From sequence record MT932213.1: 64,000 nt of DNA. One strand, written 5' to 3'. Positions 3,730 through 61,462 of this stretch are shown piece after piece; position 1 is the stretch's first letter, and the number at the start of each line of letters is the position of its first letter. Source of the stretch: Escherichia phage VEc74. The position numbers were made by a program, and so were the translations under genes. The notes under the pieces are model-generated. The model did no database searches. It saw only the letters and a program-made list of their open reading frames with translations, and was not told the DNA's origin.

Positions 3730-5148
3730 TTATGGATAGGTATAGATGATACCAGTTTCTAAAGCAGTTTTATGAATGATGTATCCATTACGCGATTCTT
3801 GGACATCAACTTCTGGATAATCTTTCATCATCTTCTGAAGAGTGTAACGATGCAGGTAGTATTTACTATCTGGATCTTCAGTTTTCCAATCTTTACCTTC
3901 TTCAGTCATTTTTTGAATTTCATCCATAACCCACCAACCACACCAGATGTAAGCTGAGCTACGGTGTGGAAGAGGATGAACATAAGGTAATTCACCTTCT
4001 GGTTCTGGAGCAACTTTATCAGTTACCTGAACTTGACCTTCTGCCGTAATAGTTTTGCTATCATAATCAGCAGCAGTAACAGTTGCAGTAACTTCAATAG
4101 TTTGACTTCCAATAGATGAGGTATCAACGGTATATACATTAGTTGACCCTTCTACAGGAGAAGAATCTTTCTTCCATGAATATTCAATTTGCGCTTCTTC
4201 TGGAGCATCAGTGACATTAGCAGTAAATGTAGCCGAAGCATCTTGTTGAACGTTAATAGAAGGAGGAGTCAATGTAACCTGTGGATTCATTGTCTTCTTA
4301 TTAACCGTTAATGATACTTCATTAGAAGTAACTTCCTTTTCATTGTAATTTTCAGCAGTTACTTGAGCTACGCATTTAATTCTTTTTACTCCACTTGTAG
4401 TTGGAGTATAGTTAAATGTAGAGTTAGTTTCTCCACCAACTTGTGAATCATCTACATACCACTGATACGTAGCAGATGCTCCATCAGGTTGAGAAGCTAA
4501 GGCAGCAGTAAATTGAACTGGGGTTCCGATAACTCCCGCTGGAGGACTATCAGGAGTTACTGCCAAAGTAGTTGTCTGCTCCTTTTTATTAACAGTCAGT
4601 GATACTTCATTAGAAGTAACTTCTTTTGCATCATAATCTGTCGCGGTTACTTGAGCCACACACTTAATTGTTTTAACTCCGCTTGTGGTAGGAGTGTAAT
4701 TGAATGTAGCAGAAGTTGCTTCGCCCACAGGAGAACCGTCAACGTGCCATTGATACGTAGCAGATGCACCTGGTGGCTGCGAAGTTAAGGCAGCGGTAAA
4801 TTCAACAGCTGTTCCAATCACTCCAGCAGCAGGACTATCAGGAGTTACAGCTAAGGTGGTCGTTTGTGTCTTATTTTGAACTGTGATAGTTGTAGTAGCT
4901 TCTGCTGTTTCAGCATCAGTATCTGGGACTGGGTTTGTTGCAACTACTTTAATAGTCTTTTGACCGGCAGGTCCTTTTAGTACATAATTAAAAGTTGCTT
5001 CAGCTCCATCTTGTGGAACATCATCTACAGTCCAAGCATATGTAATAGGTCCATCTCCAGTTTGACCACTGGGTGTAGCAGTAAACTGCTGAGTCTGATC
5101 TATAACTCCAGTAGGTGTTTTAGGAGTTATATCAACTGTAAAAGCCAT
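3730..5148 (-). CDS. hoc: Highly antigenic outer capsid protein Hoc, with one extra Ig-like domain relative to T4 Hoc
   Basis: 472-aa ORF; N-terminal MAFTVDITPKTPTGVIDQTQQFTATPSGQTG and C-terminal capsid-binding region ...YIWCGWWVMDEIQKMTEEGKDWK... match T4 Hoc (376 aa in T4 as I recall). Confidence 0.88.
   Translation of the reverse strand: MAFTVDITPKTPTGVIDQTQQFTATPSGQTGDGPITYAWTVDDVPQDGAEATFNYVLKGPAGQKTIKVVATNPVPDTDAETAEATTTITVQNKTQTTTLAVTPDSPAAGVIGTAVEFTAALTSQPPGASATYQWHVDGSPVGEATSATFNYTPTTSGVKTIKCVAQVTATDYDAKEVTSNEVSLTVNKKEQTTTLAVTPDSPPAGVIGTPVQFTAALASQPDGASATYQWYVDDSQVGGETNSTFNYTPTTSGVKRIKCVAQVTAENYNEKEVTSNEVSLTVNKKTMNPQVTLTPPSINVQQDASATFTANVTDAPEEAQIEYSWKKDSSPVEGSTNVYTVDTSSIGSQTIEVTATVTAADYDSKTITAEGQVQVTDKVAPEPEGELPYVHPLPHRSSAYIWCGWWVMDEIQKMTEEGKDWKTEDPDSKYYLHRYTLQKMMKDYPEVDVQESRNGYIIHKTALETGIIYTYP
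4288..4863. repeat. In-frame tandem duplication (2 x 288 bp) inside hoc encoding two near-identical 96-aa Ig-like domains
   Basis: Protein repeats TTTLAVTPDSP[A/P]AGVIGT...EVTSNEVSLTVNKK occur twice consecutively; DNA copies are visibly near-identical. Confidence 0.85.
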
Positions 5149-16640: not shown

Positions 16641-16644
16641 CAAT

Positions 16645-16662
16645 GGGGACCGAAAGGTCCCC
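16645..16662. terminator. Bidirectional GC hairpin (ggggaccgaaaggtcccc) between convergent gene 54 and minus-strand ORF
   Basis: Perfect 7-bp stem, GAAA loop, T-run on plus strand. Confidence 0.7.
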
Positions 16663-16668
16663 ATATTT

Positions 16669-16959
16669 TTATTTACGGAATGAAATGAAAGCAGCAACTG
16701 AAGCAACTAAACTGTCTTCAATATAAACTTCAATTTTTACCGGAGCTTCTGACTCAAATTTACCTGTTACTACACCCTGGAAAATACTTTCAGTCTGTTC
16801 TGGCTTTGAAAAATTTTCAGAAGGAAAAATTCCGAACTTTTTATCTGTTCCAAAAATTTTAATAAATTCATCGTAAACTGCTTCATTAAAAGCGTTATCA
16901 GCAGGAATAACGCCTTCAACTACAAGTTCTTGACCTAAAAAGCGCAAAGAAGATTTCAT
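16669..16959 (-). CDS. Hypothetical protein (T4 alt.-3 position)
   Basis: 96-aa ORF with its own early promoter and RBS. Confidence 0.55.
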   Translation of the reverse strand: MKSSLRFLGQELVVEGVIPADNAFNEAVYDEFIKIFGTDKKFGIFPSENFSKPEQTESIFQGVVTGKFESEAPVKIEVYIEDSLVASVAAFISFRK

Positions 16960-16990
16960 TTTGTGTTCCTCATGTTATGTCAGTAAGACT

Positions 16991-17020
16991 ACTATAACAC
17001 AACATAAGGAACTTGTAAAC
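16991..17020 (-). promoter_or_regulatory. T4-type early promoter (-35 GTTTAC, 18-bp spacer, -10 TATAGT)
   Basis: Read on minus strand; part of a 50-bp promoter-leader module also present at 32517-32566. Confidence 0.6.
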
Positions 17021-19077
17021 TACATTTTGAACTTTTTAGACATTCCGTTGATGTTAACCAAAGAAGCTAAGATTTGAGAAACTTCGTTTTCCTCTTCTTT
17101 TGATTCTTCTACAAGGAATTGATTAAATCCAACCATTGGACGAACTTCACCAGTTTCCATTAGATGGTCGCCATCATATACTGATTCTTCTAATTGTTCA
17201 GAAGGAGGAACGATTGTACCTTCGATTAGATACTTGTTATAAGCCGTTTCTTTCATAAAGTACGTACTTACTTTATTAATCTTCAGTAAAATTCCACGAG
17301 GTAGAATAACTTCAGCTTCTGATGGAAATCCTGATAAATGACCTGGAACGATAACTTTGATTCGCTCAGCTCCTTTAATTACCATACCCACGCTAGTTTC
17401 AGCATCTTCATTGGCATATGTAGAATGACTACCCATATGCATCAAATGTTCTGCATCAACGGAACCTTCTCCTTCACCAGAAAATACTGCGCCGGAATCA
17501 TCTAGAGCCATATAGTTTTTACCATGCTCACCGAAGATATTTGGTTTAAGCGATGTCGATACGAAGTTCTTGAAATAGAACATTTTGTTTTCAATGTTAT
17601 GACGCAAAGTTTTAAAGGTAACTTCTTGTCCACGGTAAAGTGTAGTTCCTGGAGGAAGAACTGAACCTTTAGCGAATGCAGAATCCAACGTCTCGATGTG
17701 CTTAATAGCTCGTTCCATATATTCTTCACGGGTAGAATCTGGTTTACCCAAAAGGAACGAGTTCATTTCAACATATGAATCTGCACAATAATCTTCAATT
17801 ACATCAGACTCAGCCTGAGTCAGTCCTTTTGGAGTTACTTCAGTACTTGCATATTCATATGCCTGAGCAGCAGATTCATTAATCAATTTATAAATGCCAT
17901 TCATGACAAATTGAATAATAGCTGTCTTTTCATCTGGCGTAGCATTAGAACCTTTAACCAAATCATTGATAATTTTCTTAATAACATCAAAGCTATTAGA
18001 AATATTAATGTCAGCAAGATCGCTTAAAATTTTATCAGTTTTATAATCAAAGAATTCTTTATTCTTTAAATATTCTTGAGAACCTTGATATGTTATATCG
18101 CTTTGCAACTTGATAGATGGATCACGTAAACGTGCATGGGCTAATGCAATATGATTTCGGAAGTTTTCTAGTTCATAATCGCTAGATTTAAAACGAGAAG
18201 CACTTCTCATACCACCAATAGCTCCTTTGTTGAAGTTTGAACCAATCTGAATAACGCCAGAGTTCATTGGTCCTTCTGCTTTATATACCGGAACTTTAGA
18301 TTCAAACTCTTGATATTTCTTAGCAGCGAAGCTATCACCCTGAAGTGAAGCATCAACAGTAGAATATTGAGCTTGTGCTGCTAATCGACGACTAATTTTA
18401 GTTTTCTGAATAACAGCTTGATCCGTGCGCTTATCATTTTCTAAAGCAATAGAAGCAGCAACAGCGACAGCTTTAGGAACAGCATTACCTGTTTTAACGT
18501 CTACATAAACATCACCGACCTTTGATTCAACTTTTGTGAATAACTCAGTTGAAATAGGAGGTACACCTGGAATGTCTTCTAAATTGGCATTTTTACGGTA
18601 AACCATAATATATGCGTACTTTTTATCATAGTCCCAGATTTCCTTTAAAAGAACATATCGACCTGCTCCTTTAGTACGTACTAAACGGTCAGCAATAACT
18701 TGCATTTGACGAGCTGCGCCATTTGTTTTACTTTTTAGTACGCGGAATAAGCATGCGTCGATTTTATACTGCTTCATTGTTTGAAGAGCAGTATCAAAAA
18801 CCGCATTAATGACGCCAATTGGATTTCCACCCAAGTTTCTAAGCTTAACCAGCGATAATTTCTCGTTGACGCCTATCATTACGATATGCATCATTTTGTC
18901 GCCTGGCTTAACGTTTTTATTTGTATCACCGCCAGAGGTGTATGTACAAAATCTAAATCCAGGAAGCACACTTTCTTCGCCGGCTTGAATAGCAAAAATT
19001 TGTGGTATTTTATGCTTAGGATTTAAGTTAACAACCGGCGCCGAAGCGCCGTCAAATAATTCTGTAATAAGTTCCAT
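17020..19077 (-). CDS. Alt-like ADP-ribosyltransferase paralog (T4 alt.-2 position)
   Basis: 685-aa ORF; N-terminus MELITELFD... and blocks GxGRYVLLKEIWDYDKKYAYI, EDIPGVPxISTELFTKVESKVGDVY shared with Alt; C-terminal R / STS / EAEVILPRG ART motifs (YRGQ, FVSTSL, SEAEVILPRG). Confidence 0.8.
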   Translation of the reverse strand: MELITELFDGASAPVVNLNPKHKIPQIFAIQAGEESVLPGFRFCTYTSGGDTNKNVKPGDKMMHIVMIGVNEKLSLVKLRNLGGNPIGVINAVFDTALQTMKQYKIDACLFRVLKSKTNGAARQMQVIADRLVRTKGAGRYVLLKEIWDYDKKYAYIMVYRKNANLEDIPGVPPISTELFTKVESKVGDVYVDVKTGNAVPKAVAVAASIALENDKRTDQAVIQKTKISRRLAAQAQYSTVDASLQGDSFAAKKYQEFESKVPVYKAEGPMNSGVIQIGSNFNKGAIGGMRSASRFKSSDYELENFRNHIALAHARLRDPSIKLQSDITYQGSQEYLKNKEFFDYKTDKILSDLADINISNSFDVIKKIINDLVKGSNATPDEKTAIIQFVMNGIYKLINESAAQAYEYASTEVTPKGLTQAESDVIEDYCADSYVEMNSFLLGKPDSTREEYMERAIKHIETLDSAFAKGSVLPPGTTLYRGQEVTFKTLRHNIENKMFYFKNFVSTSLKPNIFGEHGKNYMALDDSGAVFSGEGEGSVDAEHLMHMGSHSTYANEDAETSVGMVIKGAERIKVIVPGHLSGFPSEAEVILPRGILLKINKVSTYFMKETAYNKYLIEGTIVPPSEQLEESVYDGDHLMETGEVRPMVGFNQFLVEESKEEENEVSQILASLVNINGMSKKFKM

Positions 19078-19080
19078 GAT

Positions 19081-21171
19081 TTATCCTTGAACGAACTTGT
19101 AAGGCATGTTTGTAATATCTATGCAAGACGCAATAATTCCAAGAGATGATTCTACTTTCTGTTTAACATTTGATGAAACAAATGATGCAAAGTCAACTCT
19201 ATCTTCTATATCACCTGTCATTGTAACCAATTCACCAGTTTCCATTAAATGGTCTCCGTCATAGATTACCGATTCAGTGAGTTCTTCTGTGGTCATAACT
19301 TCAGCTTGAATGAGTTTTGTATTATTAGACGTGGTTCCGTCATTATTAGAAGCATCAATTATTTTATTAACTTTGACCATCAATCCGCGCGGTAGAATAA
19401 CTTCAGCTTCTGTTGCTATTCCGAGACTTCCTGGATATACAACATTAACTTTATGAGCTCCATCAATTGCCCATCCTATTTGAACTTTAACGTATTCAGG
19501 ATTTTCTTTATACGCTCTTATTTCGTTTGGATTAATAGTTATTCCTTCTTCATTTTTATCAACTGTTAATTCATTACGAGCTTCTGGTTCTAAAAGACCA
19601 ATACCAGCATGTGTAATTCCAAAACGTCCAAAAATGATAGGAGTTAAAGAAGTAGATACAAAATTTCTGAAATAGAACACTTTATTTTTAACTAGTGCTT
19701 CGTATATAGGAGCAGTCATACTTTGAGCACGATAAACTGTAATGCCTTCCGGTATGCGGTCACCATTTTCAAAAGCTGAATCTAAATTATTTATAGCAGA
19801 TTCAATTTCTTTTTCACTCATTACATCATATCGTTCTGGATTGTAACGACCTAAAAGAAGATTATTAATGTCTGTATATCCTGAACCGCAATATTCTCTA
19901 ATGCCACGCTTTTGTGATGGAGTATATTTAGAACCATCACGGGCAATAGTAATATCAATCATTGGACCAGCACCAATTCCAGAAAAGCTATAAATCATTC
20001 GTTTGAGGAATTTAGTTTTTGCTGCATTCCAGGCATTTTTAGTTATTTCTCCCCAGACTTCATCTGGCTGCCCTTTACGAGTTTTATTATGTTTATCAAG
20101 CCAATTATCTTTATATTCTTCAAAGAGTTGATTAACAGCTGCTGCGTATTTCTCTAAACATTTTATTGAAGTAGTTGGTTCATTTTTAATCGCATTAAGA
20201 ATTACATCTTTAATTTTTTCAGAAACTTCATCAACCTCACTTTTTGAAAAGAATTTATATTCATAGTGAAGTTCATTTGCAGTTCCTTCAGCAATAATTT
20301 TTGCTGCCTTAGTTTTAGAAGCTAATGAATTAATTCCAAGCTTCATTTCTTCTGCTTCGGGAATTAAAGGAGCAGTAGCAGGTTTATTAAAATTAGCTGC
20401 GGTAGATTCATACTTCTGGAATAATTCACTTTCAAATCTAGAAGATTCTAATGATTGACTTTGCGCAATTGCTCTACGGGAAATTTTAACTTTAACGATT
20501 ACAGCTTGATCAGAACGTTTATCATTTTCTTGCGCAATAGATGCTGCAATTGCCTCATTTTTAGTTACTTGAGCTCCAGTATCTTTATTGATATAAACAT
20601 CACCGACCTTCGATTCAACTTTAGTAAAGAGTTCGGTACTAATTTCCGGAACTCCTGGAATGTCTTCTAGTGATACATTTTTGCGATGTATAAGAATATA
20701 TGCATACTTTTTATCATAATCCCAGAGTTCCTTAAGAAGGACGTATCTGCCACCTGAACGACTACGGATAAGTCTATCAGCAATAACTTGAATTTGTCGA
20801 GCTTGACCAGCAGTTTTAGACTTAAGAATACGGAGCATACAAGCATCAATTTTATATTGACGCATTGTTTGCATTGCAACAGTAAAAACTGAATTGATAT
20901 AATTAATTGGACTTGGACCAAGACCTTTCAATTTAGCAATTGAACCTTTAGCAGTTAATGTAAAAGGAACAATATGCATCATTTTATCGCCCATCTTTAA
21001 ATCACGATTAGTATCACCTCCAGATGTATAGGTACATAAACGAAAGCCTGGTTGTTCAATTGCATCATCAACGTGAACTGAAAAAATTTGCGGTATTTTC
21101 TTCTTTGGATTTAAGTTTGTAATCGGAAGAGTAGTATCTTCGTCAAATAATTCTGTAATGAGTTCCATCAT
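19081..21171 (-). CDS. alt: Alt ADP-ribosyltransferase (head-packaged, RNA polymerase-modifying)
   Basis: 696-aa ORF; MELITELFDEDTTLPITNL...KKKIPQIFSVHVDDAIEQPGFRLCTYTSGGDTNRDLKMGDKMMHIV matches T4 Alt; ART motifs YRAQ, FVSTSL, ATEAEVILPRG. Confidence 0.9.
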   Translation of the reverse strand: MMELITELFDEDTTLPITNLNPKKKIPQIFSVHVDDAIEQPGFRLCTYTSGGDTNRDLKMGDKMMHIVPFTLTAKGSIAKLKGLGPSPINYINSVFTVAMQTMRQYKIDACMLRILKSKTAGQARQIQVIADRLIRSRSGGRYVLLKELWDYDKKYAYILIHRKNVSLEDIPGVPEISTELFTKVESKVGDVYINKDTGAQVTKNEAIAASIAQENDKRSDQAVIVKVKISRRAIAQSQSLESSRFESELFQKYESTAANFNKPATAPLIPEAEEMKLGINSLASKTKAAKIIAEGTANELHYEYKFFSKSEVDEVSEKIKDVILNAIKNEPTTSIKCLEKYAAAVNQLFEEYKDNWLDKHNKTRKGQPDEVWGEITKNAWNAAKTKFLKRMIYSFSGIGAGPMIDITIARDGSKYTPSQKRGIREYCGSGYTDINNLLLGRYNPERYDVMSEKEIESAINNLDSAFENGDRIPEGITVYRAQSMTAPIYEALVKNKVFYFRNFVSTSLTPIIFGRFGITHAGIGLLEPEARNELTVDKNEEGITINPNEIRAYKENPEYVKVQIGWAIDGAHKVNVVYPGSLGIATEAEVILPRGLMVKVNKIIDASNNDGTTSNNTKLIQAEVMTTEELTESVIYDGDHLMETGELVTMTGDIEDRVDFASFVSSNVKQKVESSLGIIASCIDITNMPYKFVQG

Positions 21172-25543: not shown

Positions 25544-25579
25544 GATGTTTAATTACGGTACAGGTATATAATATCATAT

Positions 25580-25608
25580 CCTGTACCAAAGTAAACAATT
25601 ATTTTACT
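25580..25608 (-). promoter_or_regulatory. Early promoter (-35 GTTTAC, 17-bp spacer, -10 TATTAT) embedded in a perfect 8-bp inverted repeat
   Basis: Inverted repeat ggtacagg...cctgtacc at 25569-25599 brackets the -10 region. Confidence 0.45.
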
Positions 25609-25931: not shown

Positions 25932-25958
25932 TTTATTCTCCTTTGTTTGTGTAAGATA

Positions 25959-25988
25959 ATACTATCACAAAGGAACCGTACTGTAAAC
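25959..25988 (-). promoter_or_regulatory. Early promoter (-35 GTTTAC, 18-bp spacer, -10 TAGTAT)
   Basis: Read on minus strand, just downstream of a terminator hairpin and A/T-rich UP-like tract. Confidence 0.55.
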
Positions 25989-29540: not shown

Positions 29541-29570
29541 ATAATATCACAACTCTACCGTAAAGTAAAC
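29541..29570 (-). promoter_or_regulatory. Early promoter (-35 GTTTAC, 18-bp spacer, -10 TATTAT)
   Basis: Read on minus strand upstream of the 175-aa ORF. Confidence 0.5.
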
Positions 29571-31661: not shown

Positions 31662-32011
31662 TTAGAAAGGTCCTGGATGTCTTCTGCGAACTTGTTGAAG
31701 GAGTTGTTGATTTGTTTTTCAACCAATCCTGGCTTATGAGCCACCACATCCGCCTTCTTTGCATCTTTGCGCAGTTTTTCATTTTCACGCTCAATAGCAG
31801 CAATTGCCTCACGATTTTTATTATTCATCGCATCAATATAATTATACTGAATTTGCAAATTATTTAACGCTAAGGCGTTTTCATTGGCCGTTTTTGTAAT
31901 TTCAGTAACTGATGTTTCTAATCTTTCTACCTTATTTTTTAAAATAATAGATGTTCCGCCAAATGCTATTACAAGTAATAGCAATCCAGCTGTAAAATTA
32001 CTTACATGCAT
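31658..32011 (-). CDS. Predicted membrane-anchored coiled-coil protein
   Basis: 117-aa ORF; N-terminal hydrophobic helix FTAGLLLLVIAFGGTSIIL then heptad-like charged region. Confidence 0.5.
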   Translation of the reverse strand: MHVSNFTAGLLLLVIAFGGTSIILKNKVERLETSVTEITKTANENALALNNLQIQYNYIDAMNNKNREAIAAIERENEKLRKDAKKADVVAHKPGLVEKQINNSFNKFAEDIQDLSK

Positions 32012-32508
32012 AAAGTTTTAATAACCTCTATAATATCGTCTTGGGAAAGACCGTTAATTAAAATATGATGCTCAGCTGGAGATTTAGAAATTTTAAAGCA
32101 TGCCTCAACATCTTCTGCCATATCCGATGCACTACGATTTGGATTACTAATTCCAAGACGATGCTTTCCAGTCAAAGGATTAACAATAATGTAGCATTTA
32201 CAGCTATTGATATGAACATTAGGTTGAGTCTGATTAATGAACACTTCACAATCATACTTAGCGAGTTGATTTTCTAAAAAGACTTTCATCTCTTCAACCG
32301 CATCAGGAAGCATATCACGGGCTTGCTCAAGACGACGATTTCGATATTCTTTAATGGTCGTTTTCCGCTTGACTTGCTTAGCTAAATCTTTCTTAAGATC
32401 GGTGATATATCCAACTCGACGATTTCCTTTAAATACAGAAATCCCATCTGTAGTATCACCGTATGCTTCAACGACCATTTCAGTAGTAATGAGCTGCAAA
32501 TCCATCAT
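32002..32508 (-). CDS. alc: Probable Alc (inhibitor of host transcription on cytosine-containing DNA)
   Basis: 168-aa ORF at the T4 alc position between pseT.x and rnlA; T4 Alc is 167 aa as I recall; sequence identity not verified. Confidence 0.55.
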   Translation of the reverse strand: MMDLQLITTEMVVEAYGDTTDGISVFKGNRRVGYITDLKKDLAKQVKRKTTIKEYRNRRLEQARDMLPDAVEEMKVFLENQLAKYDCEVFINQTQPNVHINSCKCYIIVNPLTGKHRLGISNPNRSASDMAEDVEACFKISKSPAEHHILINGLSQDDIIEVIKTLCM

Positions 32509-32536
32509 AAAGTCCTCATGTTATGTCAGTAAGACT

Positions 32537-32566
32537 ACTGTAACACAACACGAGGGACTTGTAAAC
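32537..32566 (-). promoter_or_regulatory. Early promoter (-35 GTTTAC, 18-bp spacer, -10 TACAGT), copy of the 16991-17020 module
   Basis: 45 of 50 bp identical to 16971-17020, including leader and RBS. Confidence 0.6.
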
Positions 32567-32569
32567 AGC

Positions 32570-34157
<1,588 letters not shown>

Positions 34158-40581: not shown

Positions 40582-40607
40582 TTTATTCTCCTCAAGTTGA
40601 TAAGGCT

Positions 40608-40637
40608 ATAGTATCATTACAATAGCCTGTTGTAAAC
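40608..40637 (-). promoter_or_regulatory. Early promoter (-35 GTTTAC, 18-bp spacer, -10 TACTAT)
   Basis: Read on minus strand. Confidence 0.55.
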
Positions 40638-40867: not shown

Positions 40868-40896
40868 TTTATTTTCCTCATGTAGTTGATAGGGTA

Positions 40897-40926
40897 ATAG
40901 TATCACACTATTACCATGATGTAAAC
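40897..40926 (-). promoter_or_regulatory. Early promoter (-35 GTTTAC, 18-bp spacer, -10 TACTAT)
   Basis: Read on minus strand. Confidence 0.55.
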
Positions 40927-41566: not shown

Positions 41567-41609
41567 ATTATTTTCCTCTTTAATCATCAGCAGTATTGCC
41601 GATAGTTGT

Positions 41610-41639
41610 ATAGTACCACAGCATGCTTTGGTTGTAAAC
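41610..41639 (-). promoter_or_regulatory. Early promoter (-35 GTTTAC, 18-bp spacer, -10 TACTAT) within a repeated cassette
   Basis: 72-bp cassette 41601-41672 is near-identical to 58283-58354. Confidence 0.6.
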
Positions 41640-41670
41640 CGTTTTGTGAAAAAATTTTTGAAATAAAAAA

Positions 41671-41689
41671 GGGGACCTCTAGGGTCCCC
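41671..41689 (-). terminator. Rho-independent terminator after gene 32 (ggggacctctagggtcccc plus T-run)
   Basis: Perfect 8-bp stem followed by TTTTTTATTT on minus strand. Confidence 0.8.
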
Positions 41690-41711
41690 AATTAATTAGT
41701 AATATAATCTA

Positions 41712-58250: not shown

Positions 58251-58291
58251 TTTCTAATCTCCGTAATTCTGTATCAGTAGTTGATAGTTGT

Positions 58292-58321
58292 ATAGTACCA
58301 CAGTATGCTTTGGTTGTAAAC
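58292..58321 (-). promoter_or_regulatory. Early promoter (-35 GTTTAC, 18-bp spacer, -10 TACTAT) for motA, within repeated cassette
   Basis: 72-bp cassette 58283-58354 near-identical to 41601-41672. Confidence 0.6.
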
Positions 58322-58352
58322 CGTTTTGTGAAAAAATTTTTGAAATAAAAAA

Positions 58353-58372
58353 GGGAGAGCCTCGGCTCTCCC
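58353..58372 (-). terminator. GC hairpin (gggagagcctcggctctccc) plus T-run
   Basis: Perfect 8-bp stem followed by TTTTTTATTTC on minus strand. Confidence 0.75.
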
Positions 58373-58377
58373 TAAAA

Positions 58378-58527
58378 TTACTGCATGACTGTGATAACTG
58401 TCATGATAACACGTTGAATTCCGAACGCAAGAAGACCTCCTGCTACGGCTGGAACAACACCTAACCCCACCAGTAAAATGCTACCAGATACTAATGCAGC
58501 GCTTGTAATACCAATGAATGGACTCAT
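58378..58527 (-). CDS. Small hydrophobic peptide (49 aa; motA.1 position), not in ORF track
   Basis: Hand translation MSPFIGITSAALVSGSILLVGLGVVPAVAGGLLAFGIQRVIMTVITVMQ; ATGA overlap with gene 52 stop. Confidence 0.4.
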   Translation of the reverse strand: MSPFIGITSAALVSGSILLVGLGVVPAVAGGLLAFGIQRVIMTVITVMQ

Positions 58528-61404: not shown

Positions 61405-61432
61405 TTTATGTTCCTCCGTAGTTGATAGGGTA

Positions 61433-61462
61433 ATAATACCACAGAGGAACAGTCTTGTAAAC
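61433..61462 (-). promoter_or_regulatory. Early promoter (-35 GTTTAC, 18-bp spacer, -10 TATTAT)
   Basis: Read on minus strand; flanking sequence gtagttgatagggtaata resembles the 40885 copy. Confidence 0.5.

Follow-up and report, generated by a model that had tools for sequence, protein, structure and literature searches.

A duplicated T4-type early-promoter cassette ahead of alt.-3 and alc forms a predicted RNA hairpin between the promoter spacer and the Shine-Dalgarno sequence

Two early genes of Escherichia phage VEc74, alt.-3 and alc, are preceded by near-identical copies of a 54-nt cassette in which an early promoter lies inside an imperfect palindrome. The copies were found in a 64-kb stretch of record MT932213.1 (64,000 nucleotides, hereafter the window), which is part of a Tequatrovirus (T4/RB32-like) genome. 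The RNA of the repeat is predicted to fold into a hairpin of ~21 bp (about -26 to -30 kcal/mol), with its 5' arm in the promoter spacer, the -10 element at the apex, and a 3' arm made up of the leader and the Shine-Dalgarno sequence (SD) GAGGA. We propose that the cassette is an early promoter of the PeSL kind placed inside a hairpin and that it probably acts as a gate on translation that depends on the start site: transcripts from its own promoter would be translated, and read-through transcripts would have their SD blocked. The features discussed are listed in Table 1.

Table 1 Features of the two cassettes and their surroundings in the 64-kb window
Feature	Position	Strand	Basis
Copy A of the 54-nt cassette (alt.-3 copy), -35 to SD	16967..17020	-	Repeat family D13, sequence reading
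Copy A -35, TTTACA (GTTTAC at 17020-17015)	17014..17019	-	Promoter scan
Copy A -10, TATAGT, TGn extended, 17-nt spacer, in apical part of hairpin	16991..16996	-	Promoter scan, folding
Copy A predicted transcription start, A, 7 nt after -10	16984	-	Promoter geometry
Copy A predicted RNA hairpin, 21 bp, -25.7 kcal/mol, z = -4.8	16965..17012	-	RNA folding
Copy B of the 54-nt cassette (alc copy)	32513..32566	-	Repeat family D13, sequence reading
Copy B -35, TTTACA	32560..32565	-	Promoter scan
Copy B -10, TACAGT, TGn, 17-nt spacer	32537..32542	-	Promoter scan
Copy B predicted RNA hairpin, -29.8 kcal/mol, z = -3.4, SD GAGGA (32517-32513) paired	32510..32560	-	RNA folding
alt.-3 (96 aa, DUF5498 = T4 Alt.-3), early gene behind copy A	16669..16959	-	Pfam
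alc (inhibitor of host transcription, Pfam ALC, E 2.5e-92), early gene behind copy B	32002..32508	-	Pfam
alt.-2, full-length Alt-like ADP-ribosyltransferase paralogue, upstream of copy A	17020..19077	-	Pfam, ORF
rnlA (gene 63, RNA ligase 1 / tail-fibre attachment), upstream of copy B	32570..33730	-	Pfam, ORF
Bidirectional terminator hairpin closing the alt.-3 transcription unit, converging with gene 54	16643..16664	.	Terminator scan
TATAAATA late-promoter motif, 21 nt upstream of the alt start codon	21192..21199	-	Motif match only; 12 window matches, not above chance

The genes here are encoded on the minus strand. Over the 2.5 kb surrounding the repeat, the sequence is 97.6-98.5% identical to the best-matching T4-type records listed among the 503 with a match. 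The initial annotation had placed the gene behind copy B at the alc position, and Pfam identified it as ALC; the alc start annotated in T4 is the second ATG (32505). The same annotation had called both downstream genes early, in agreement with T4, where alc and alt.-3 are classed as early RNA and early protein (PMC9697503 supplement). In that supplement, T4 rnlA is early RNA and late protein, and alt.-2 and alt.-1 are middle. It should be noted that alt (19081-21171) and alt.-2 (17020-19077) in the window are tandem full-length paralogues, ~71-82% identical (repeat families D1, D4, D11, D12, and D17). The alt.-2 and alt.-1 of T4 itself are no more than short remnants.

The repeat search showed that the two copies match at 50 of 54 positions (93%). 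The identity runs unbroken through the -35, spacer, -10, leader, and SD, with the entire spacer and 24 nt of leader common to both copies, which on the minus strand read GTTTAC-A-(17 nt)-TA(T/C)AGT-AGTCTTACTGACATAACAT-GAGGA. Beyond the SD on the 3' side, the copies are wholly unlike (ACACAAAATG at alt.-3 vs CTTTATGATG at alc). A 34-nt core of the repeat has two matches with one mismatch or fewer in the 64-kb window, and none was found in 100 dinucleotide-preserving shuffles.

A shorter version of the repeat, 16971-17020 vs 32517-32566, had been described in the initial annotation as a duplicated promoter and leader module ahead of two unrelated genes. This description held, as the hexamers, the 17-nt spacer, and the TGn are all there, and the similarity is not limited to the promoter hexamers and the ribosome-binding site, since the whole spacer and leader match. 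Near-identity over those 50 nt was also borne out, but the figure of 45/50 has to be corrected to 46/50 (four mismatches). The 50 nt contain the -35, the -10, and the 5' leader as claimed; the ribosome-binding site, however, is almost wholly outside them, since the copy A SD GAGGA (16971-16967) is inside only the longer, 54-nt repeat. Nor does each copy span a start codon, as had been thought. The alt.-3 start codon is at 16959-16957 on the minus strand, beyond the interval, and the start codons of both alt.-3 and alc are outside the 54-nt repeat; the 'cat' at 16971-16973 is an ATG immediately 5' of the SD and not the alt.-3 start.

Both copies have the features of a T4-type early promoter, namely GTTTAC(A), a spacer of 17 +/- 1 nt, TGn, and a TAnnnT -10. 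By sigma-70 score, TTTACA-17-TATAGT of copy A reached 10/12 and TTTACA-17-TACAGT of copy B 9/12, with TG in both, and the alt.-3 copy is annotated as a "predicted T4 early promoter" in two GenBank records. The -35 of copy A is overlapped by the TAG stop codon of alt.-2 (17022-17020), and the TAA stop codon of rnlA (32572-32570) lies 3 nt upstream of GTTTAC in copy B. Where an A/T-rich UP element would lie, upstream of the -35, copy B has AAAAATTATAAAAAATTTA at ~-60 to -40 and copy A has A-rich coding sequence. The SD and ATG are located 47-61 nt past the start of GTTTAC in both copies. From the spacing of these elements, we infer that transcription from copy B starts near 32530. Judged by their sequences, the cassette promoters would be T4-type early (sigma-70) promoters that fire right after infection. 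They share GTTTAC, the 17-nt spacer, TGn, the -10, and early expression in T4 with the known T4 early promoters, which have an extended UP/-35/TGn/-10 consensus (Hinton 2010, PMC2988021). However, the mutual identity of the copies far exceeds this consensus.

In the copy A hairpin, the 5' arm occupies 17012-16996, the apical stem 16993-16990/16985-16982, and the 3' arm 16981-16965. The copy-specific flanks 3' of the SD both extend the helix (GUUCC/GGAAC at alt.-3 and AAGUCC/GGACUU at alc), and the copy B helix is lengthened by its alc-specific flank, where CUU pairs with AAG. The predicted pairing probability of the SD is ~1 in both hairpins, and its probability of being unpaired in read-through RNA is 0.001-0.02. 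RNA taken from after the -10 has folding energies of -2.5 and -4.6 kcal/mol, without significant structure, and in the own-promoter alt.-3 transcript the SD is still partly paired (P unpaired 0.18). Opening the stretch from the SD to AUG+3 was calculated to cost 4.5-4.6 kcal/mol in the predicted own-promoter RNA vs 13.4-14.2 kcal/mol in the read-through RNA, a thermodynamic estimate that is ~9 kcal/mol higher for the latter. A scan of the whole 64-kb window against Rfam gave 0 matches at the gathering score.

The shared leader had been taken to imply co-regulation, possibly with a common control at the RNA level, and a RegB GGAG site or a RegA operator had been named as examples. The palindrome had gone unnoticed; RNA-level control would lie in the repeat itself, whose hairpin pairs the promoter spacer with the SD. 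Joint post-transcriptional control through RegB or RegA would suit alc and alt.-3, both of which are early, as RegB and RegA act on early mRNAs (PMC3014915). However, the common 54 nt contain GAGGA and no GGAG, and the A/U-rich surroundings of the AUG, where RegA binds, are outside the repeat and unrelated between the copies, making such control extremely improbable. Separately, an ATG in the 3' arm (ACATGAGGA) opens a mini-ORF of 4-5 codons whose TGA overlaps the real start in both copies (16972-16957 and 32518-32503, minus strand). It was considered as a uORF and rejected: it is without an SD, and other genera have ACG there, covarying with the 5' arm. The mini-ORF is probably not a functional uORF.

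The terminator scan found no terminator between alt.-2 and copy A or between rnlA and copy B. With no terminator upstream and a TATAAATA motif ahead of alt, read-through into both cassettes is expected, and late read-through that reaches alt.-2 and copy A probably arises at this motif, which is a sequence match. A Rho-independent terminator at the cassettes themselves was also considered and rejected, as the scan called none at either of them and a U-tract is missing; neither hairpin is followed by a T-run, and the tails are A-rich.

The cassette follows directly on the stop codon of a late-type gene and leads into the SD of an early gene, and we propose that it acts there as a switch. Host sigma-70 RNA polymerase would start ~7 nt after the -10, between the two arms, and the resulting transcript would carry only the 3' arm and an open SD, allowing alc and alt.-3 to be translated at once after infection. 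Transcripts started upstream, at the alt late promoter or at the promoters serving rnlA and the genes before it, would cross the cassette with no terminator intervening. Such read-through RNA would have both arms, and the ~21-bp hairpin would bury the SD, leading to poor translation of the downstream gene. The synthesis of Alc and Alt.-3 would thus be confined to the brief period of early-promoter firing.

Four T4 genes, e, soc, 49, and I-TevI, are known to have hairpins that sequester the SD and enclose a promoter (reviewed in Uzan and Miller 2010, PMC3014915). In those genes, as in the cassette, the SD is taken up in a helix, and the 5' strand of this helix comes from sequence ahead of the proximal promoter. 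Their long transcripts are untranslatable, and their promoter-proximal transcripts lack the 5' strand and are translated; the folding model predicts likewise here. However, their internal promoter is a late one (TATAAATA) and early read-through is silenced, whereas the promoter here is of the early sigma-70 type and no TATAAATA was found inside either cassette. The predicted effect would be the reverse of the gene e type, with later or upstream-initiated RNA silenced. What would be new relative to the known T4 gate is the promoter class and hence the predicted temporal direction, which is reversed. No earlier description of the alc hairpin was found in the literature searched, the scope of which excluded older early-promoter papers.

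As an early-promoter cassette found at dispersed sites, the module also falls under the published definition of PeSLs, the promoter-early stem-loop cassettes of T4-like phages (Arbiol et al. 2010, PMC2839356; Comeau et al. 2014, PMC4122927). Like PeSLs, it is intergenic and runs from an upstream stop codon through an early promoter to an SD and ATG, its promoter is of the sigma-70 early type (TTTACW-N17-TAYWAT in the PST/T4 pair), a stem-loop lies over the -10 (-25.7 and -29.8 kcal/mol here), and it occurs in dispersed copies (two in the window and three in phage G28) with signs of cassette exchange between loci. It differs in that the PeSL stem-loop has been read as a terminator or attenuator, whereas the present hairpin lacks a U-tract and has the SD itself as its 3' arm, and in that exchange here replaced the cassette interior only and not the flanked gene. 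Translation is nowhere mentioned in the 2010 PeSL paper (PMC2839356).

The main rival to the proposed gate is a reading as ordinary PeSLs, in which the stem-loop serves upstream transcription as an attenuator, a pause site, a 3'-end stabiliser, or an RNase III site, the SD happens to lie in an arm without any translational role, and the duplication provides recombination homology only. A 21-bp helix is long enough to be a substrate of RNase III. Nearly all early-promoter-like sites in the window have an inverted repeat at the -10, and most of these stop short of the SD. Published early-promoter cassettes likewise carry stem-loops between the -35 and -10 or over the -10, and terminator activity has been shown for one RB49 stem-loop (PMC2839356; PMC4122927). 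However, a T-run is missing after the hairpin not only in both copies but also in the other-genus alc cassettes, which have A-rich tails. Furthermore, the anti-SD is fixed just past the -35 in ~12 independent arm variants, and only where the SD forms the 3' arm, a pattern that can hardly be incidental. We consider the ordinary PeSL reading unlikely.

Evidence on these arm variants came from alc loci across the Tevenvirinae, 40 of which were taken from IMG/VR via an Alc protein alignment and seven from GenBank phages. Together with both window copies, 32 rnlA-alc intergenic regions (GenBank and IMG/VR) made up a set of 34 unique cassettes. The rnlA-alc spacer of most Tevenvirinae genera has a common layout, with GTTTACA, directly after it an anti-SD (TCTCC, TCCTC, CCCC...) and the 5' arm, then the -10, and finally a 3' arm ending in the SD. 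An unbroken helix of 9-16 bp leads from the spacer just past GTTTACA to the SD in 27 of the 34 cassettes. There are ~12 different arm sequences among the cassettes, for example TCTCCATTTGGTTG / TAACCAAATGGAGA, TCCTCATCAG / CTGATGAGGA, CCTCTCGTTTTTG / CAAAAACGAGAGG, and CCCCGTTTTGTTG / TAACAAAATGGGG.

The arms vary together. In a register-free helix search, cognate arms paired over 10.65 bp on average, vs 6.19 bp for non-cognate arms and 5.9 bp for shuffled ones, and pairing from composition only (T/G-rich 5' arm, A/C-rich 3' arm) was seen in 4% of shuffles. A structure-blind MAFFT alignment of 10 other-genus sequences, a register-consistent subset, had 96.4% of its cells paired vs 31-56% when the partners were slid. 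Four pairs of this alignment changed on both sides, and its covariation was 0.308 vs 0.164, a level reached by 0 of 500 shuffles. A covariance model built only from these genera matched both window copies (37.3 bits, E 3e-6, and 26 bits, E 2e-3) as well as three more early-promoter cassettes in the window. The alignment of the covariance model was not used for pair counts, as it mis-registers the Tequatrovirus copies and takes in reverse-strand matches. When 23 cassettes were aligned with MAFFT without anchoring, RNAalifold predicted no structure, as the register of the helix shifts slightly between sequences.

The SD-sequestering helix is not universal at alc. A helix reaching the SD is absent in Mosigvirus and in sequence L090, pairing in Tegunavirus-like sequences and in L078 is confined to the surroundings of the -10, and the alc region of Gaprivervirus is arranged differently and includes a terminator and one more small alc-like ORF. 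The device is thus dispensable, as several lineages do without SD sequestration at alc. Scans of viral and metagenome sequences with the cassette pattern returned a few Tequatrovirus variants and otherwise chance matches in unrelated contigs (L029, L030, L032, L036, and L037). Taken more broadly, the alc hairpin and its early promoter could represent an old Tevenvirinae-wide switch that mirrors the one in gene e, limits translation of immediate-early proteins to promoter-proximal RNA, silences these proteins on the long middle and late RNAs that inevitably cross it, and is one form of a general design with promoters inside hairpins; we put this forward tentatively, as a possibility somewhat short of even.

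Covariation between arms would also be seen if the palindrome acted as DNA, either as an operator at which a dimeric protein of phage or host shuts off both promoters or as a cruciform or recombination signal, since palindromic half-sites covary too. The cross-genus helices are mostly pure Watson-Crick with no clear strand bias, and the mechanism of T4 early-promoter shut-off is reported as unknown (PMC2988021). However, arms of 9-16 contiguous bp around a 16-19 nt loop that holds the -10 are unlike operator half-sites, the arm sequences vary between promoters of one genome, and the 3' arm always coincides with the SD. In addition, pairing in the window copies depends on three G.U pairs, and in duplex DNA these would be mismatches. 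With these three pairs in each window helix, the sense strand forms 13-16 bp vs 6-8 bp for the antisense strand, so that only the sense strand makes a long helix in this phage. A role as a DNA element is very improbable on this evidence. Across genera, the strand asymmetry of G.U vs A.C was not significant (10 sequences favour the sense strand and nine the antisense strand), and selection on sense RNA over a DNA palindrome is therefore shown only for Tequatrovirus. The sequence-based case for selection at the RNA level draws on two points: the SD is consistently involved, and the Tequatrovirus helices contain G.U pairs.

In most genera (L047-L092), the rnlA-alc junction has a stop codon fused to the -35 (TAGTTTACA), with the anti-SD ~7 nt further on. 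A ribosome terminating at this conserved junction might melt the hairpin at its base, and this brings in translational coupling: the SD would stay closed on polycistronic RNA unless a ribosome from the upstream gene melts the helix base, and the output of alc and alt.-3 would be proportional to that of the upstream gene. An upstream stop that overlaps or abuts the -35, with the anti-SD 7-10 nt on, is conserved across genera (TAGTTTACA-TCCTC/TCTCC), and from its known footprint a terminating ribosome would cover the first few anti-SD bases. However, only 2-4 of the ~21 bp would open, T4 RnlA protein is late and Alc early (PMC9697503 supplement), the opposite of coupling, and the embedded promoter makes coupling unnecessary. 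We regard coupling as improbable and retain the start-site-dependent gate as the preferred reading.

Within Tequatrovirus, the two copies of a genome differ at 0-6 positions, with all 54 nt identical in some genomes. The 3' arm hardly varies, and the single change seen in it, G to A in T4, replaces a U.G pair by U-A. In the part of the 5' arm near the SD, pairing is kept at two variable sites (C-G/U.G and G.U/A-U). The alt.-3 variant of the window (T11, T15, A16) is more stable with its own 3' flank (-25.7 vs -23.0 kcal/mol), and some alt.-3 copies are mismatched in the upper stem (REP4, -15.2 kcal/mol).

The alt.-3 orthologues in Gaprivervirus, Dhakavirus, Mosigvirus, Marfavirus, and Karamvirus have TAG-TTTACA early promoters too, with a small spacer hairpin only (AAGGA-type loop) and a free SD. 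Since the SD-sequestering cassette is missing from alt.-3 in these other genera, it appears to be the original state at alc and a later arrival at alt.-3. In the Tequatrovirus alt.-3 copy, the flanks (AAAATGTAG... and ...ACACAAAATGAAATC) match those of other-genus alt.-3 and the interior matches alc, which suggests that the alc cassette probably replaced the ancestral alt.-3 promoter by recombination or conversion. A conversion tract would fit bounds at the conserved ends TTTACAA and ACATGAGGA. The earlier proposal that the repeat serves as a substrate for recombination is supported by the differing alt.-3 cassettes of other genera, by the copies that match at 54/54 positions in some genomes, and by phage G28, which has three cassette copies, all with the -10 variant TATAATAATC. 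A crossover between the direct copies would remove 15.5 kb including the DNA ligase gene (gene 30), so only conversion would be expected to survive.

Other rearrangements of cassettes were observed. Escherichia phage vB_EcoM-G28 (L040) has a 351-bp tandem duplication at 4137-4545 that contains the rnlA 3' end, the cassette, and the 5' part of alc. In Shigella phage Shf125875 (Mosigvirus, L005; 1183-1243) and also in L022, TATAGTAGTCCTACTGAAACATGAGGAACACAAAATG, the -10-to-ATG half of the alt.-3 copy, precedes the unrelated ndd.1, where the cassette has a different spacer with its own hairpin (GTAGGA/TCCTAC) and a free SD. A second cassette type has a spacer hairpin of 4-6 bp with an AAGGA-type loop, e.g., CACCAAGGATGGTG. 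This type serves alt.-3 in five genera (L094-L098) and alc in Mosigvirus (L006/L051), and alt.-3 and alc thus share cassette types in more than one lineage.

How T4 halts early-protein synthesis despite continued transcription through early genes has been only partly explained, and the strategies that shut off early promoters are reported as unknown (PMC2988021). A gate of the proposed kind would limit early proteins such as Alc to the first minutes without a trans-acting factor. If true, it would be a previously undescribed layer of temporal control, in a cassette that can be copied to other genes, as at alt.-3, where the swap would mean that the gate is transplantable as one 54-nt unit. It would also show that PeSL stem-loops, hitherto read as terminators or recombination sites, can act on translation. 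A potential use is as a compact part that ties translation to where transcription began.

Early-promoter cassettes with related architecture were found elsewhere in the window. Two further cassettes on the minus strand, 25935-25988 (upstream of the 30.8 homologue) and 61406-61462 (ndd.x region), pair their spacers with the SD through the arms TTCCTTTGTG/CAAAGGAG and GTTCCTCTGTGG/CTACGGAGGAAC, respectively, with an SD pairing probability of ~1. Both were also matched by the other-genus alc covariance model. Inverted repeats centred on the -10 accompany almost all T4-type early-promoter-like sites, e.g., at 25568-25595, 29541-29569, 40600-40636, and 40890-40925 (minus strand). Their 5' arm falls within the spacer and their 3' arm within the bases transcribed first, even without SD involvement, and the arms differ from promoter to promoter. 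The window also contains a 98-nt repeat (41601-41698 vs 58283-58380, 87% identical) with a G+C-rich terminator hairpin, an A/T-rich stretch, and an early promoter, which is the layout of a classical terminator-plus-promoter PeSL. It is probably the other duplicated promoter module to which the initial annotation alluded. A tandem repeat with a unit of 288 nt and 76% identity (family D2) is present at 4294-4869.
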